DNA of 63,865 bases, counting the filler, from an uncultured Thermoplasmatales archaeon (lineage in GTDB: Archaea; Thermoplasmatota; E2; DHVEG-1), in assembly GCA_964517155.1 (NCBI GenBank). It is 5 parts of 5 records of this genome, joined end to end, with 100 filler letters (N's around TTAATTAATTAA, not from the genome) between each part and the next. Parts side by side here need not be neighbours in the genome. Positions count along the whole stretch, not along the records: positions 60,985 to 63,865 come from CAZFAZ010000013.1; 4 more parts are not named here. The stretch is one strand, 5' to 3'. Below are positions 4,525 to 63,865 of the stretch, piece after piece; positions within the stretch are counted from its first letter, which is position 1, and every line of letters starts with the position of its first letter. Position numbers and translations under genes: made by a program. The notes under the pieces were generated by a model. The model ran no database searches and was not told where the DNA came from. It saw only the letters and a list, made by a program, of their open reading frames with translations.

Positions 4525-4767
4525 TTACTTCAAACCCATCATTTTTCTAAGGTCTTTAGGAGTTCCGACGTTTACAGGTTTTTCCTTCATTATTTCTTTA
4601 GCTTTTTCAATATATTCTGGTCTAAGTTCAGGTTCAAGAATTTCTTGTTCGTATTCTTTAGCCATAAGATCAATGGCTTGACTTTTGTCTTTAAGTCCAT
4701 ATTTTGCCTTGAGGATATTTAAAATTCTATTGGTATTTTCTTTGATGTTTATTATAGCTTGAACCAT
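4525..4767 (-). CDS. DUF2683-like antitoxin
   Basis: MVQAIINI...LNILKAKYGLKDKSQAID...LEPELRPEY pattern; 2 nt upstream of the RelE-like gene. Confidence 0.75.
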   Translation of the reverse strand: MVQAIINIKENTNRILNILKAKYGLKDKSQAIDLMAKEYEQEILEPELRPEYIEKAKEIMKEKPVNVGTPKDLRKMMGLK

Positions 4768-4885
4768 ATTAATACAACCTTAATATAATATATATATGGC
4801 ATTAATATATATAACTTTCTGTCAAAAATATCAAGCGTATAAAAATATTATACGTAATCAAAAAAGAAATGATGGAGGTATATGG

Positions 4886-6235: not shown

Positions 6236-7096
6236 CTATTTAACAAACAGCATAGAATATTTACATTTCTCAGCGATTTTCTTTTTAACGTTTTTTACAG
6301 GAAAACCTAGCATCCCTTTCTTTTTTTGTTCTTGACCTAGTATTACTAGTTGTGCCTTGATTTTTTCTGCTTTTTTTACGATTTGTTTTTCAAGGCTGCC
6401 TTTAACAATTTCAACATTTATTTGTTTTTTTTGCATTTCTTCTACAAATTTTTGTGCCTGGATTTTTAGTTCTTTTTCTGTTTGTTTAGTTGATCTTTTC
6501 CCTTGCTCATCAACTTGTACGCAATCTTCTGTATCTACAATATATAATATTTGCAAACTCCAGCCTAAAGTCTCTGCAAGTTTTATGCTAATTTGAGATA
6601 TTTTTTGATTTGACACAAGGTTTGAACAGATAGCTAGTATTTTCTGACTGGTTCCTTTGCCTACCACCCATATTGGTATATTTACTTCTTCAAAAAGCCT
6701 ATAGTTTAGAATACATCCTTTCCTAAACCCCATTAAAAGTAAATCATATTTTTTGCTTCTTATTTCTTCTTTTATTGCATCTGTATATTCTTGCTCAACT
6801 ATTTTCTCAGAGATTTCTTTGTTTTTAAATATTTTTTTTATTTCTTGAAAAATTATTGTATCTGCTGATTGTTTTTGGTTTTCTATTAGTTCTTTTTTTG
6901 TCTCTTCAAGATTATATTCTGTTATATATGAACAAGATATTTTATTTGTTTGTTTTAGTGTTTTTTCGTCTATTATGTATAGTATTGTAATTTGACTTTT
7001 GAATTTCTCAGAAAGAGTAAGTGCTCTTTGTATTACTTGTTTTGAATAAAATTCTGATGATATCGGCATCAATATATTTCTAAACATTTTTTTCAC
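6236..7096 (-). CDS. Universal stress protein with tandem USP domains
   Basis: MFRNILMPIS...ITILYII...YDLLLMG, then a second domain ending AQLVILG...IAEKCKYSMLFVK. Confidence 0.85.
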   Translation of the reverse strand: MKKMFRNILMPISSEFYSKQVIQRALTLSEKFKSQITILYIIDEKTLKQTNKISCSYITEYNLEETKKELIENQKQSADTIIFQEIKKIFKNKEISEKIVEQEYTDAIKEEIRSKKYDLLLMGFRKGCILNYRLFEEVNIPIWVVGKGTSQKILAICSNLVSNQKISQISIKLAETLGWSLQILYIVDTEDCVQVDEQGKRSTKQTEKELKIQAQKFVEEMQKKQINVEIVKGSLEKQIVKKAEKIKAQLVILGQEQKKKGMLGFPVKNVKKKIAEKCKYSMLFVK

Positions 7097-21057: not shown

Positions 21058-21157
21058 NNNNNNNNNNNNNNNNNNNNNNNNNNNNNNNNNNNNNNNNNNN
21101 NTTAATTAATTAANNNNNNNNNNNNNNNNNNNNNNNNNNNNNNNNNNNNNNNNNNNN
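21058..21157. other. Artificial contig linker
   Basis: N44-TTAATTAATTAA-N44, which has stops in all six frames. Confidence 0.99.
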
Positions 21158-29596: not shown

Positions 29597-29696
29597 NNNN
29601 NNNNNNNNNNNNNNNNNNNNNNNNNNNNNNNNNNNNNNNNTTAATTAATTAANNNNNNNNNNNNNNNNNNNNNNNNNNNNNNNNNNNNNNNNNNNN
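29597..29696. other. Artificial contig linker
   Basis: N44-TTAATTAATTAA-N44. Confidence 0.99.
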
Positions 29697-56295: not shown

Positions 56296-56395
56296 NNNNN
56301 NNNNNNNNNNNNNNNNNNNNNNNNNNNNNNNNNNNNNNNTTAATTAATTAANNNNNNNNNNNNNNNNNNNNNNNNNNNNNNNNNNNNNNNNNNNN
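56296..56395. other. Artificial contig linker
   Basis: N44-TTAATTAATTAA-N44. Confidence 0.99.
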
Positions 56396-60459: not shown

Positions 60460-60884
60460 ATGGGAAGAAAACGCACTTATTTATTTAAAAATAAGAAAGC
60501 ATCAATTGGTATTGGTGCGATGATTGTGTTTATTGCTATGGTTCTTGTAGCAGGTATTGCTGCAAATGTTATTATTCAGACTAGCGTTACTCTTGAATCT
60601 CAATCTATGGCTACGGGGCTTCAAACAACATCTGAGGTATCTGCAGGTCTTGCAGTCTGTGCAATAGAAGGATATGTTGCGTCTAGTTCCGAAAATATAT
60701 CAAAACTTGCAATACTTGTACGACCAAGAGCAGGTACAGAAAGTATTGATATGAGTGGTGCTTTTATTGAAATAACTGATATGAATACTAAAGTTCTTTT
60801 AAATTATACCTCTGCCTATTATTTAAAACCAAGTGGATTAAATGATATCTTTTCTGCAAATGTATTTCCAAATCACAGCAGTGC
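60460..60884 (+). CDS. flaB: Archaellin, 3'-partial
   Basis: KKA/SIGIGAMIVFIAMVLVAGIAA class III signal peptide. Confidence 0.92.
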
Positions 60885-60984
60885 NNNNNNNNNNNNNNNN
60901 NNNNNNNNNNNNNNNNNNNNNNNNNNNNTTAATTAATTAANNNNNNNNNNNNNNNNNNNNNNNNNNNNNNNNNNNNNNNNNNNN
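60885..60984. other. Artificial contig linker
   Basis: N44-TTAATTAATTAA-N44. Confidence 0.99.
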
Positions 60985-61569
60985 TACAGGTATTTGTATC
61001 TCTTGTGTGTAAAACCCTTCACTTGGAGAGCCTCTTGTTACACATGCAGTAAAACCTCCATCGCCTGCATCCATCAGCTTTAATGATTCAGTTGATTTTT
61101 CAGCACCACTTGCCTCTTTTATATATAATATTTTCTCGTTTTTCCACAAGATATATTTTATTGCATTTTCGGATAGCTCTCCAACTTCTTTTACCCAGCC
61201 ATCTGGAAAACATGAGAGCAGTGTTTTAGCAAGATTTGTTTTACCTGCAGAGCTTGATCCAATTATTTTTAAAAGCCCACTTCCATCTTTTTTAGATATT
61301 GTCCTTAAAATGTATAGGAATCCTGTAAGAGCTGATTTTAATTCTTTTTCTGTGCCAGTATGTTTTTTTATGATTGTTGTTATAATATTTGCCAGTGGTT
61401 TCTCTGATAACTCCTGCAATAGTTGGCTCTCATTTTTAAGTATGTTTTGTATTTCTGATTTTTTTGGTAATTCTGTTTTTTCACCTTTCAGGAATTTTAC
61501 TGCATCATCCATCTCTGCTTTTGCAAGTTCAATCTGTTCCTTTGTAAGTTTTGTTTTTTTAACTGCCAT
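60985..61569 (-). CDS. P-loop ATPase, possibly a mobile-element replication helicase, 3'-partial
   Basis: Walker A GSSSAGKT and Walker B-like ILYIKE; GGAGGAGG SD. Confidence 0.65.
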
Positions 61570-61748
61570 CAGTATTCCTCCTCCTCAGTTATCCAGAGTT
61601 TTTTGCCCTTAGTGGTTTTAACAAAAATCGTTTCAAAGCCTTCAAGAGTTGAAAAAAAATCTTTTATATCTTGGATTTTTTCTATTTTGCATTTACCCAC
61701 TATCCCAATAGTAAAAATCGGATCAAATTCTATTTTTCCATTTACCAT
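61569..61748 (-). CDS. 59-aa hypothetical protein
   Basis: Not in the ORF track. GGAGGTG SD; MVNGKIEFDPIFTIGIVGKC...; TGATG coupling to the ATPase. Confidence 0.6.
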   Translation of the reverse strand: MVNGKIEFDPIFTIGIVGKCKIEKIQDIKDFFSTLEGFETIFVKTTKGKKLWITEEEEY

Positions 61749-61770: not shown

Positions 61771-62685
61771 TCAACTGATATAATGTTCCTCCAACCAGTT
61801 TTTCACTTCTCTTCTACAGATTTTATGAGTATTTTCAATTATACTTTTATCAATGTAACTACTTATAGTATTCTCAAGAGTTTCATTCAATAGATCAACT
61901 GGAACTTGATCCAGTTCATATTGCACAATGCCATTTTCATTAAAAAAATCTTTAACATATTGTTTTGTTAAATGAGCCTTTTTCTGTTTTGGGCTCATTT
62001 TTCTGATTCTATCTTCATAACCAATATTGGAGATGTAATTATATTTTTTAATTTGAGATCCAGTTAAAAACAGTTTTTTTACTTCAACATATCCAAAAAG
62101 CTCAAGTTTATCTTTACAAAGTTGGAATGTGTGTTCCCCTTCACAATCAAAATCAGATATGTAAATAATTTTTATTGGTATATTGTTTTCATCAATAATT
62201 TTTGGCATCCTATTTATTGCATCATGAAAAGGAATATCGCCAATAAAACCCTCACCCATAACCAAAGCAACATCATAATCTGATAGTAGATCTTGCGTTA
62301 CCTCAGGGAGTTCTTTTTCAGTCCATACTTCAACATAATACTTTTGAAGAGATTTACTGCTTTTAGTATAATAATCACATAATATGTCAAATCTTTCCTG
62401 AAAACCATAAGGCTCTTTTATACCAAGATTTTCAACTGTAGTTCTTTTATCTTTAAACCAGTCATATGGAATAATGTCCTGTTCTCTAAGATTTTGGAAT
62501 AATTTACATGTTTGTTTATATTGTGTATCTGAGGTATCTTTAACAAGCTGATTTGATACAAGCTCATAAAGAACTCTTCTACTCCATATTCTACCATATC
62601 TTTCAACCCAGTTCTTGATTATTTCTATTTTTTGTTTAACACTGGGCTCTGTGGTGAGATATTTCAAGCTATAATCCTTAACCAT
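61771..62685 (-). CDS. Topo VI-A/Spo11/JetD-like winged-helix plus Toprim protein
   Basis: RRVLYELVS...Y...LRE..IIPYDWFKD winged helix, YVEVWTEK, IIYISDFDCEG (DxD) and YELD. Confidence 0.7.
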   Translation of the reverse strand: MVKDYSLKYLTTEPSVKQKIEIIKNWVERYGRIWSRRVLYELVSNQLVKDTSDTQYKQTCKLFQNLREQDIIPYDWFKDKRTTVENLGIKEPYGFQERFDILCDYYTKSSKSLQKYYVEVWTEKELPEVTQDLLSDYDVALVMGEGFIGDIPFHDAINRMPKIIDENNIPIKIIYISDFDCEGEHTFQLCKDKLELFGYVEVKKLFLTGSQIKKYNYISNIGYEDRIRKMSPKQKKAHLTKQYVKDFFNENGIVQYELDQVPVDLLNETLENTISSYIDKSIIENTHKICRREVKNWLEEHYIS

Positions 62686-62957
62686 GCATGCATCCCCCAC
62701 AGTTTTCGTTTCCAATTTTTCTTTTTTTATTTACTTCAACTTCCATTTCCATTTTCCTATCATCTCCTATAAAAACACTAAAATTTTATTTTTTATAATT
62801 CCTCCGTGCACTACTGGTTTTTTCATATTCTGGAAGATCAAACCATGCTTTCAGAAAACGATGCAACCCAAAAAACAAAGGTTTTGTCAGCCTCCGATCC
62901 TTATAAAAAATCGTTATAAATTGCCCATCGTCATCTTGCCCTTTTTTGATTGTATAA

Positions 62958-63110
62958 TTAGTCATCCTTTCCTCCTTTGGTTTTTAAAAAATTTTCAATA
63001 GCTCTTCGGCAAAATTCAGCCCTGCTCATCATAAAAGGATCTTTTTTTACTGCTTCATCCACAGCATCAATATATTCCTTCCTGAAGTTTACAGTTATAT
63101 ATTTGGACAT
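62958..63110 (-). CDS. 50-aa ribbon-helix-helix protein (Arc/Cro-like position)
   Basis: Not in the ORF track. MSKYITVNFRKEYIDAVDEAVKKDPFMMSRAEFCRRAIENFLKTKGGKDD; GAGGT SD. Confidence 0.85.
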   Translation of the reverse strand: MSKYITVNFRKEYIDAVDEAVKKDPFMMSRAEFCRRAIENFLKTKGGKDD

Positions 63111-63121
63111 TTTCTTACCTC

Positions 63122-63190
63122 TGGCGTATTTTCACGCCATAAATATATGCACTCCCCAGTATATATATTTTGGCGTATTTTCACGCCATA
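63122..63190. promoter_or_regulatory. Two identical palindromic operators, TGGCGT-ATTTTC-ACGCCA
   Basis: An exact 20-bp repeat at 63122-63141 and 63171-63190 brackets a TATA-like run. A further half-site, TATGGCGT, lies at 63226-63233. Confidence 0.85.
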
Positions 63191-63234
63191 GATGTATAGA
63201 AATATTAATTAATTGATAACGTATTTATGGCGTA

Positions 63235-63675
63235 ATGAATAAAAAACCTGCAAAATATCTAAATGTTAATTTACCAAGAGAAATACTTATAGAAGTTGAT
63301 AAGGCAGTTAAGAAGAATAAATTTATTAGAAGCAGAGCAGAATTTGTTAAAGAAAGTATTAGATATGCACTATTGCTTGAGAAAAATATTCCTCTTTATA
63401 AAGAGAAAGATACAGGAAAATGGAAACCCATAACAGAAGAAACAGTTGAAAAATTTAAAAACAAAATGAAAAATAAAGATTTTAAGGGAGTGGAATTTAG
63501 CAAACGAGAAACACTTGAAGAAATTATTATGGCAATTATTTACAGAACAGAGGAACTATCTAAGAATACAGAAAAAATATATGATGTTATAAATGTATTA
63601 GGTGAAGCTCTTGTTAATACAAATAAAAGAATAACTGAAATTCATGATCTCCTAAAAAAAGAAAAGAAAAAATAA
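63235..63675 (+). CDS. RHH regulator with C-terminal coiled coil (Mnt/CI-like position)
   Basis: KYLNVNLPREILIEVDKAVKKNKFIRSRAEFVKESIR followed by a heptad-like C-terminus. Confidence 0.85.
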   Translation: MNKKPAKYLNVNLPREILIEVDKAVKKNKFIRSRAEFVKESIRYALLLEKNIPLYKEKDTGKWKPITEETVEKFKNKMKNKDFKGVEFSKRETLEEIIMAIIYRTEELSKNTEKIYDVINVLGEALVNTNKRITEIHDLLKKEKKK

Positions 63676-63865
63676 TTGTTTTAATTTTTTATATAATAGC
63701 AAAGTTCATCTATTAACTTTTCAAAATCTTCACCAGTAAAAACAGTTTTTTTAGTCATCTCAAATCACTTGTTAATGCTTTTCAATATATATTTACTTTA
63801 CCAAACCACAAAACAATTTTGTTTTTTACGATATAACTTGAAAGAAAGCCCACCACTTTAGTCGT

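Follow-up and report, generated by a model that had tools for sequence, protein, structure and literature searches.

A divergent pair of RHH paralogs with shared predicted operators as a candidate dormancy switch of archaeal integrative elements

Results

A divergent RHH gene pair on a mobile-element contig

The window, by which we mean the whole stretch of 63,865 nucleotides analyzed here, consists of five contigs of an uncultured archaeon joined by N runs and a stop-codon linker (N runs at 21058-21157, 29597-29696, 56296-56395, and 60885-60984). ORFs that run across these joins (e.g., 60937-61569 and 60460-60936) are genes cut at contig joins and were ruled out as fusions. Neighboring contigs of the window carry archaeal core genes, and the RHH pair sits on its own 2,881-bp contig (60985-63865). 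This contig holds the following genes and ORFs:

60985-61569, minus strand: P-loop ATPase with a GSSSAGKT motif, truncated at the contig end
61569-61748, minus strand: second 59-aa ORF of the contig, between the ATPase and Mini-A genes
61771-62685, minus strand: Mini-A-like protein (stand-alone Topo VI A-like), 304 aa from its ATG
62786-62965, minus strand: 59-aa ORF overlapping the stop of the short RHH gene
62958-63110, minus strand: 50-aa short RHH protein, whose gene heads the leftward (replication) operon
63235-63675, plus strand: long RHH protein, 146 aa, with a basic arm, RHH (residues 6-52), beta-hairpin plus helix, and C-terminal helix (94-145)
63676-63865: contig tail of 190 bp from the long gene to the contig end, the place of a convergent integrase in 12 relatives

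The original prediction described two divergent, homologous RHH genes separated by a 124-bp gap, and we found it accurate on these points: both ORFs are present, the protein motifs quoted for them are correct, and BLASTP aligns them with 18 of 37 residues identical (49%, E = 4e-11). It also took the 50-aa ORF to be a real gene. Relatives at 57-67% identity bear this out, the protein is called on two contigs, and its codon score lies near the 95th percentile of 1,549 non-gene frames. Both window proteins have one RHH per chain.

Each window protein taken singly falls below the Pfam cut-off for RHH_1 (E = 0.18 and 0.073), and the RHH assignment therefore stands on family evidence. Of 60 family members, 21 match RHH_1 at E ≤ 0.01, the strongest with 1.3e-6, and the family profile matches NikR structures (E = 2.5e-6). 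In the model of the long protein (mean pLDDT 81.6), residues 6-52 align with NikR (Z 5.6, rmsd 1.7, 46 aligned) and PutA52 (Z 5.2, rmsd 1.5, 44 aligned), although these Z values are middling and tied with those of long-helix structures. Foldseek gave no match at E ≤ 0.001. The pair belongs to the RHH fold of MetJ, Arc, CopG, and NikR, with two helices after an N-terminal strand of alternating pattern. Pfam gave no match to an HTH or peptidase family for the RHH proteins at E ≤ 1, and no self-cleavage domain was found in the long protein. The long monomer model ends in a 52-residue helix, and tails are not conserved in sequence across the family. Its makeup marks the long protein as a candidate maintenance repressor.

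The other genes of the contig tie it to mobile elements. The Mini-A-like protein matches phrog_6247 (E = 4.9e-24), has viral neighbors in the Atlas (nearest named cluster TOP6A-Spo11 Toprim, at 0.90), and is 56% identical to a gene in the pair locus L062. Its RxxLY, E..DxDxxG, and xELD motifs are located at 46, 129-193, and 266, respectively. Passages of PMC7671362 list as marks of Mini-A a length of ~300 aa, the 5Y-CAP tyrosine, E..DxDxxG, a C-terminal xWELDAL-like box, and no B subunit nearby. Judged by its motifs, the 304-aa protein agrees with this feature list of Mini-A, the type IIB topoisomerase A-like proteins of viruses, and no topoisomerase B subunit was seen on the short 2,881-bp contig. 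The P-loop ATPase, probably a replication helicase, shares 55% identity across 194 aa with the ATPase that follows the short RHH in G104. An ATPase of locus G007 was considered as the same protein and rejected, there being no BLAST similarity between the two.

L062 and G104 each combine an RHH pair with a convergent tyrosine integrase. Because its ATPase and Mini-A match these two loci, the 2,881-bp contig can be regarded as a piece of a mobile element. No integrase is encoded on this contig, which stops 190 bp past the long RHH gene; for an element fragment, the integrase, if present, would thus lie beyond the right contig end. The gap between the RHH genes is almost certainly the control region of a mobile element, as had been proposed, given the Mini-A-like protein and ATPase of the contig and the integrases of its relatives.

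Evidence on the two 59-aa ORFs differs. The one at 61569-61748 may be compared with a 50-aa ORF of L062 that has a similar C-terminal end and precedes the Mini-A gene (by eye; tblastn was negative). The one at 62786-62965 has no Pfam or PHROG family, no relative in the compared loci, and a low codon score, and may not be a gene.

Further fragments were seen in the same genome. Contig C32 (36929-38181) carries, beside host genes, a tyrosine integrase that is cut off by the contig end and has 29% identity to the G104 integrase; it is a candidate for the integrase of the window element, although the two contigs could not be joined. Judged by eye from its resemblance to related loci, contig C87 (141-2855) holds a second element fragment of similar layout but with another regulator: the gene of a 224-aa protein diverges from a 69-aa ORF and from the gene of a D5-like helicase. 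The last contig bases of the window (63840-63865) resemble what we take to be an IS200/IS605-family end. They have no second copy in the genome or compared loci, and their read depth is high in public runs. Contigs from public runs, which may be the source sample, match 62954-63311 without any difference and without extending the contig. A deeper contig (run X3, record 20) matches 63012-63059, in the second helix of the short RHH, and 63760-63829, behind the long gene, at places ~690 bases apart, and is a related element in the same kind of sample.

Three predicted operators in the 124-bp gap

The gap between the two RHH genes contains the following features:

63114-63121, minus strand: SD-like GAGGTAAG of the short gene, abutting operator O1 (GAGGT at 63117-63121)
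63122-63139: predicted operator O1, TGGCGT-ATTTTC-ACGCCA, one of the twin palindromes
63158-63171, minus strand: best BRE/TATA-like box of the gap, between O1 and O2, pointing to the short gene 55 nt before its ATG
63171-63188: predicted operator O2, identical to O1, abutting the BRE side of the leftward promoter
63222-63234, plus strand: O3, an extended half-site that stops at the ATG of the long gene

Twin identical TGGCGT-N6-ACGCCA palindromes 49 bp apart around a TATA-like run had been reported for this gap, and all are present, the run being TATATATAT at 63160-63168. O1 and O2 fall within a 27-nt direct repeat of 93% identity. The half-site said to abut the long ATG is likewise there and is longer than stated, with 63222-63233 forming an exact 12-nt inverted copy of the right arm of O1 and its flank. 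Together, O1, O2, and O3 account for five TGGCGT(A/G) half-sites in the gap. The full palindrome occurs at only two sites in the 1,585,476-base genome, both in the gap, and is the only case in the whole genome of GC-containing palindromes with 6-bp arms being twinned within 100 bp. Elsewhere in the genome, no place has at least three TGGCGT(A/G) half-sites within 150 bp. The repeat score of the gap (z 11.2) was above all 150 shuffles, and only this one motif is repeated in the gap, as found by a repeat search that would miss an unrepeated second site. Very probably, the motif is bound by at least one of the RHH proteins.

The leftward box had the highest score in the gap (6.9) under a weak matrix trained on host upstream regions. 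With standard archaeal spacing, transcription from this box would begin inside O1 and the BRE would lie against O2, and therefore either site would block the replication operon. We infer that O1 covers the start site of the leftward promoter, and O1 also directly adjoins the SD of the short gene. The claim that the long gene has no SD held, as no SD-like word occurs in the 16 nt before its ATG. Promoter candidates for this gene lie at -42, -73/-75, and -95, none of them clear under the weak host-trained matrix, and an AT-rich run at -32 would suit a leaderless transcript, although its score is low. A sigma-70 scan returned 6 matches versus 6.5 expected by chance, with a model unsuited to an archaeon. 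The position of O3 would suit self-limitation of the long gene or repression by the short protein. As far as can be read from the sequence, three predicted operators lie over two divergent promoters at inferred positions.

Divergent RHH pairs recur in archaeal elements

Searches with single proteins gave almost no matches, and profiles were needed. A first profile of four sequences matched 704 protein clusters at E ≤ 0.001, and profile searches yielded 25 further divergent RHH pairs among the matches listed. Eight were in 107 other genomes of the family (among the matches listed) and nine in 8 of 49 metagenome loci. All three viral loci held a pair, two of these loci being classed as proviruses and one having a terminase gene, as did 5 of 19 places picked after class and phylum searches, again among the matches listed.

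A convergent tyrosine integrase accompanies 12 of the 25 pairs (PF00589; 10 above cut-off), and in 12 of 12 it faces the longer RHH (86-164 aa versus 47-71 aa). In these integrase-type loci, the short RHH leads small ORFs and then, contig permitting, primase/helicase-type or other large genes. The replication-type genes behind the short RHH are varied, including Prim-Pol/D5, D5, and Toprim. Thirteen pairs are without the form of long gene plus convergent integrase; the majority of them consist of two short proteins, and the split into long and short roles may therefore not be general. G468 and G476 have an integrase downstream in the operon of one RHH, that of G468 beside a tRNA-Pro gene, and such operons of G026 and L070 contain integrase-like genes. 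Another four pairs stand on contigs 1-2 kb long, and the others had no integrase match in the DNA compared. A search for attachment repeats in the DNA compared for G016, G009, G110, G104, and G095 was negative, and no sensor or inducer gene was identified next to the pairs.

Some arrangements were not counted as pairs. In G081, two divergent RHH genes are 1.6 kb apart. Outside the family but within the class, many of the strong matches listed were lone genes, often of ~300 aa. A conserved single gene of ~300 aa with an N-terminal RHH of this subfamily was seen in metagenome loci and across many genomes belonging to two further families of the class (L058-L098, e.g., L059 from 1663 onward). L049 has divergent RHH genes 1.6 kb apart (4591-4770 and 6428-6637) with matching strands (FTPVKL/YTPIKL) and TCGG/ACCGA-like repeats upstream of each, and is possibly a pair split by an insertion.

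Several loci showed additional genes around the pair. A third RHH gene lies directly behind one pair member in L070 (424-675) and L119 (5215-5364). L102 (4687-5822) has two divergent pairs in succession, each pair having a separate repeat, and the element also encodes PCNA and ParB. In several elements, a conserved-looking ORF of 53-77 aa separates the short RHH from the replication gene, as in L046 (5421-5633), L036 (848-1081), L043 (2255-2416), and L048 (10398-10589). The two that were tested had no useful Pfam or PHROG match; the ORF could be an accessory factor of a switch or of excision. A terminase and portal near the pair of G009 were ruled out as part of the pair element, as they lie beyond a tRNA gene and host-like genes. 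In L034 (5287-10110), an intein-bearing terminase and a portal end at tRNA-Gly, forming a head-tail provirus apart from the nearby RHH-pair element.

Intergenic motifs recur in layout and differ in sequence

Each intergenic region was scored by its best repeated 8-mer (one mismatch, both strands) against dinucleotide shuffles. The original prediction had staked itself on homologous pairs carrying intergenic palindromes, and repeated motifs at p < 0.05 were carried by 18 of the 25 pair regions (19 of 26 with the window), compared to 6 of 94 divergent host regions of this genome, with a highest z of 3.3 (Fisher p 5e-11, 18/25 versus 6/94). Seven of the 25 pairs were without a significant repeat. 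The motifs differ by element, for example GTAATGTAG, ACGATAC, TTTCGA, TACGTAAT, TGCGTGA, and TTAGACAT. With the patterns tried, the motif was confined to the intergenic region in 11 of 17 loci and occurred at scattered, chance-like places in the rest, and no copy was found before integrase genes.

A recurrent layout starts with one site close to the beginning of the short gene, followed by an AT-rich box and, ~35-50 bp further along, by another site; the third, often a half-site, is found close to the beginning of the other gene. This third site on the side of the long gene recurs in G007, G016, G009, G104, L070, G468, and G476. In G016, G009, G104, and G468, the best or second-best box lies between the first two sites, as in the window. 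L070, the closest pair, retains TGGCGT-N6-ACGCCA at the O1 position with another spacer and has five half-sites in all, two of them inverted. Outside the half-sites, the gaps of L070 and the window are 69% alike, and the motif they have in common is therefore partly due to plain descent. In viral contigs, the twin-palindrome pattern had no match; the single palindrome had four, none with an RHH nearby, and these were taken as chance.

Paired proteins agree in their predicted DNA-reading strand

At the variable beta-strand positions 2, 3, and 5, residues were identical in 55% of cases within pairs versus 20% in 5,000 shuffles. Cross-locus pairs matched on the rest of the domain reached 22% strand identity, as opposed to 55% within pairs (Wilcoxon p 2e-4, 25 pairs). 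Dropping five close kin gave 52% versus 20%, and the 13 integrase-type loci alone gave 49% versus 23%. G288, whose right member aligned only in half, was excluded from this test and from the tree. The strand was the most alike part within pairs; helix B and the loop, part of the dimer core, were 49% alike within pairs versus 37% between pairs. Agreement was uneven, as the window pair is identical at one of three variable strand positions and 5 of 25 pairs have no variable strand position in common. Because related loci are not independent, the p-values overstate.

Short and long proteins formed separate supported clades in several groups of a tree of 50 rows and 51 columns with many open forks, and hence the strand match in those groups is not just recent duplication. 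Gene conversion between paralogs was unsupported, with identical codons at 46% of shared residues within pairs (203/438) versus 39% across loci, a gap that may be due to base composition. The simplest reading would be that selection acts on both proteins for recognition of the same DNA. This within-pair agreement favors the shared operators of the original prediction, and both RHH proteins probably bind the motif.

The prediction had further called for a search of archaeal elements for divergent pairs with covarying palindromes. Divergent pairs exist, 25 more of them, but the link from motif to strand is weak across 19 loci (rho 0.15-0.17, p 0.03-0.04; p 0.06-0.09 after two close kin were dropped). 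L070, with strands YVTVNL/YLNVNL (YITVNF/YLNVNL in the window), keeps the palindrome found in the window, and L099 and L102a have VTLKI-type strands and an ACTCA core in common. G468 is a counter-example, having the half-site TGGCGTAA of the window yet different strands (WRTVSL/YRTISL).

Discussion

A proposed dormancy switch and its rivals

On sequence grounds, the original prediction can be extended: the module is widespread, has three sites in its layout, and carries motifs specific to each element. Given that the same layout recurs in many integrated elements with its own motif each time, the module is probably a control switch between dormant and active states. Our main reading, to which we assign a probability of about 0.6, is a switch of the CI/Cro type, in which both RHH proteins would act on shared operators, the long protein would hold the element quiet, and the short protein would lead and damp the replication operon. 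We lean slightly toward the assignment of maintenance to the long protein and of early function to the short one. That the circuit is truly bistable is argued by analogy and falls somewhat below even odds.

The proposed mechanism is as follows. The element would be an integrative element (provirus or integrative plasmid), with the gap as its central control region. Both paralogs would read the same half-site, TGGCGT(A/G), in O1, O2, and O3. The long RHH, by means of its basic arm and a long C-terminal helix that would form oligomers, would bind O1 and O2 together and block the promoter between them, leaving the operon of the short RHH and replication genes silent in the dormant state. At higher levels of long RHH, O3 would be filled and its own synthesis limited. 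When the long RHH is absent or falling, upon entry into a new cell or with some inducing signal, the leftward operon would be read. The short RHH, as a plain dimer, would then take the same sites, shut the long gene via O3, and later damp its own operon. Activation of the long gene from O2 and the inducing signal are suggested purely by analogy. The logic would be that of CI/Cro built from the RHH fold, and differing motifs per element would define immunity groups.

Both RHH proteins might instead occupy their shared sites as CopG-like negative autoregulators, holding the replication operon and copy number at a set level with one stable state. The sequence evidence fits such graded feedback as well as it fits the switch, O1 and O2 are identical and hence have no affinity ranking between them, and there is no inducer or sensor gene next to the pair. 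However, one repressor suffices for copy control, whereas paralogs with a fixed long/short split and an integrase on the same side in 12 of 12 cases suggest two states. A dormant state is also needed by the two of the three viral loci that are classed as proviruses, one with a terminase. We consider graded feedback unlikely, if far from negligible. It is improbable, in turn, that the long protein alone represses while the short one mainly poisons it through mixed dimers that lack the arm or oligomer tail. The greater likeness of helix B and the loop within than between pairs (49% versus 37%) is in keeping with mixed dimers, but a pure poison needs no matched DNA-reading strand, and yet the strand is the most alike part within pairs. 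The heterodimer envisaged in the original prediction received weak support from modeling, with a score of 0.35 against 0.00 for the best of three controls, agreement between runs in at least 92% of contacts, and a partner pLDDT of at least 64. Of the 157 solved complexes, 116 attained the mark used, as did 2 of the 215 mismatches; yet at scores ≤ 0.60 it was attained by just 18 of the 157 and by both of these mismatches, which makes the support weak. The score may show just likeness to solved RHH dimers, and paralogs of the same fold would be expected to pass such a model.

The repeats could also be sites for another protein, either origin iterons for the ATPase/primase or integrase arm sites, with the RHH pair as a bystander. 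Their location directly upstream of the replication operon would suit this, as would the weak motif-to-strand link across loci with its counter-example. Yet the repeats are placed at the SD, next to the TATA box, and at the start codon. L070 keeps the motif and RHH pair with other downstream genes (a resolvase and integrase-like genes), G104 has a different motif despite its 55%-identical ATPase, and the same three-site form occurs alongside unrelated replication proteins. We regard this explanation as very improbable.

The switch reading has a broader form, which we advance tentatively: a widespread bistable lysogeny/immunity switch of archaeal proviruses and integrative elements may have been made independently from two RHH paralogs whose strands co-evolve with a common operator that changes fast. 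Each element would thereby form a separate immunity group, and mixed dimers might be a third regulatory species. If this is true, the 26 natural protein-operator sets would open the way to a testable RHH recognition code.

The choice between dormancy and replication is known for very few systems of temperate archaeal viruses and integrative elements. Archaeal dormancy and replication circuits are described as poorly understood in PMC10123103, and few proviruses are known in this phylum according to passages of PMC13573593. The window offers a compact candidate, two proteins of 50 and 146 aa plus 124 bp of DNA, that is tractable with purified proteins and an archaeal transcription system. The module is also a marker of elements whose contigs lack a capsid gene, and its matched and mismatched repressor-operator sets could be used in tests of specificity and for orthogonal archaeal genetic parts.

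Comparison with known systems

In lambda, CI and Cro are divergent repressors acting at OR1-OR3, the long one with an oligomer domain and the short one heading the early/replication operon. Three shared sites lie over two promoters, and operators are specific to the element. As read from its sequence, the window has a similar arrangement of divergent long and short genes, three sites over two promoters, and element-specific motifs. Unlike lambda, it has the RHH fold rather than helix-turn-helix, archaeal TATA/BRE promoters, and no self-cleavage domain by Pfam. It also has two identical full sites plus a half-site, and the integrase of its relatives is convergent and apparently outside operator control.

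Mnt and Arc of P22 are divergent RHH paralogs, Mnt having a C-terminal tetramer domain, and they use different operators. The parallel drawn to them in the original prediction applies in that the window likewise has two homologous RHH genes read divergently; it is imperfect in that no antirepressor gene was found and the operators look shared, one motif being seemingly common to both window proteins. No Pfam or PHROGs match to Ant was found downstream (59-aa ORF, Mini-A-like protein, and ATPase). Whereas immI governs ant, the gene of an antirepressor, by means of sar antisense RNA and is subordinate to the C2/Cro switch, the short RHH of the window leads replication genes and no second switch was seen. 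Passages of PMC2629481 and PMC12111858 describe immI as two repressors in one phage control region, with Arc repressing the promoter from which it is read.

The nearest archaeal precedent in the passages available is AvtR (gp29) of Acidianus filamentous virus 6 (AFV6), an RHH regulator that covers the ~100 nt separating its promoter from the one of gp30, another predicted RHH gene; AvtR represses itself and activates or represses its neighbor depending on concentration (PMC5569661). The window pair resembles it in that an RHH regulator would spread across DNA beside a second RHH gene. AvtR differs in being a tandem double RHH and a monomer with a degenerate AT-rich site, and the passages of this review report no binding by gp30 (PMC5569661). 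The same passages describe F55 of SSV1 as an RHH lysogeny repressor on tandem repeats that covers early promoters, and more generally state that RHH dimers are co-operative on several operator sites and that archaeal virus RHH repressors work by covering promoters. Orf4 of SNJ2 is a lysogeny repressor that represses the integrase promoter (PMC10123103). As portrayed there, F55 and Orf4 are single repressors without a paralogous counter-repressor, unlike the window pair, and SNJ2 relies on a winged helix together with an Orc1/Cdc6 sensor module, for which the mapped loci gave no sign. Two small CopG-like RHH genes of an Archaeoglobus provirus are mentioned in passages of PMC4158269.

A full-text literature search, covering mainly the main texts of open-access papers, turned up no account of RHH paralogs paired divergently over shared operators, nor did passages of PMC6563490, PMC10848311, PMC11705971, PMC6972569, PMC13573593, and PMC11529989 contain one. 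The module works like CI/Cro in its layout and like Mnt/Arc in its fold, but is a member of neither.
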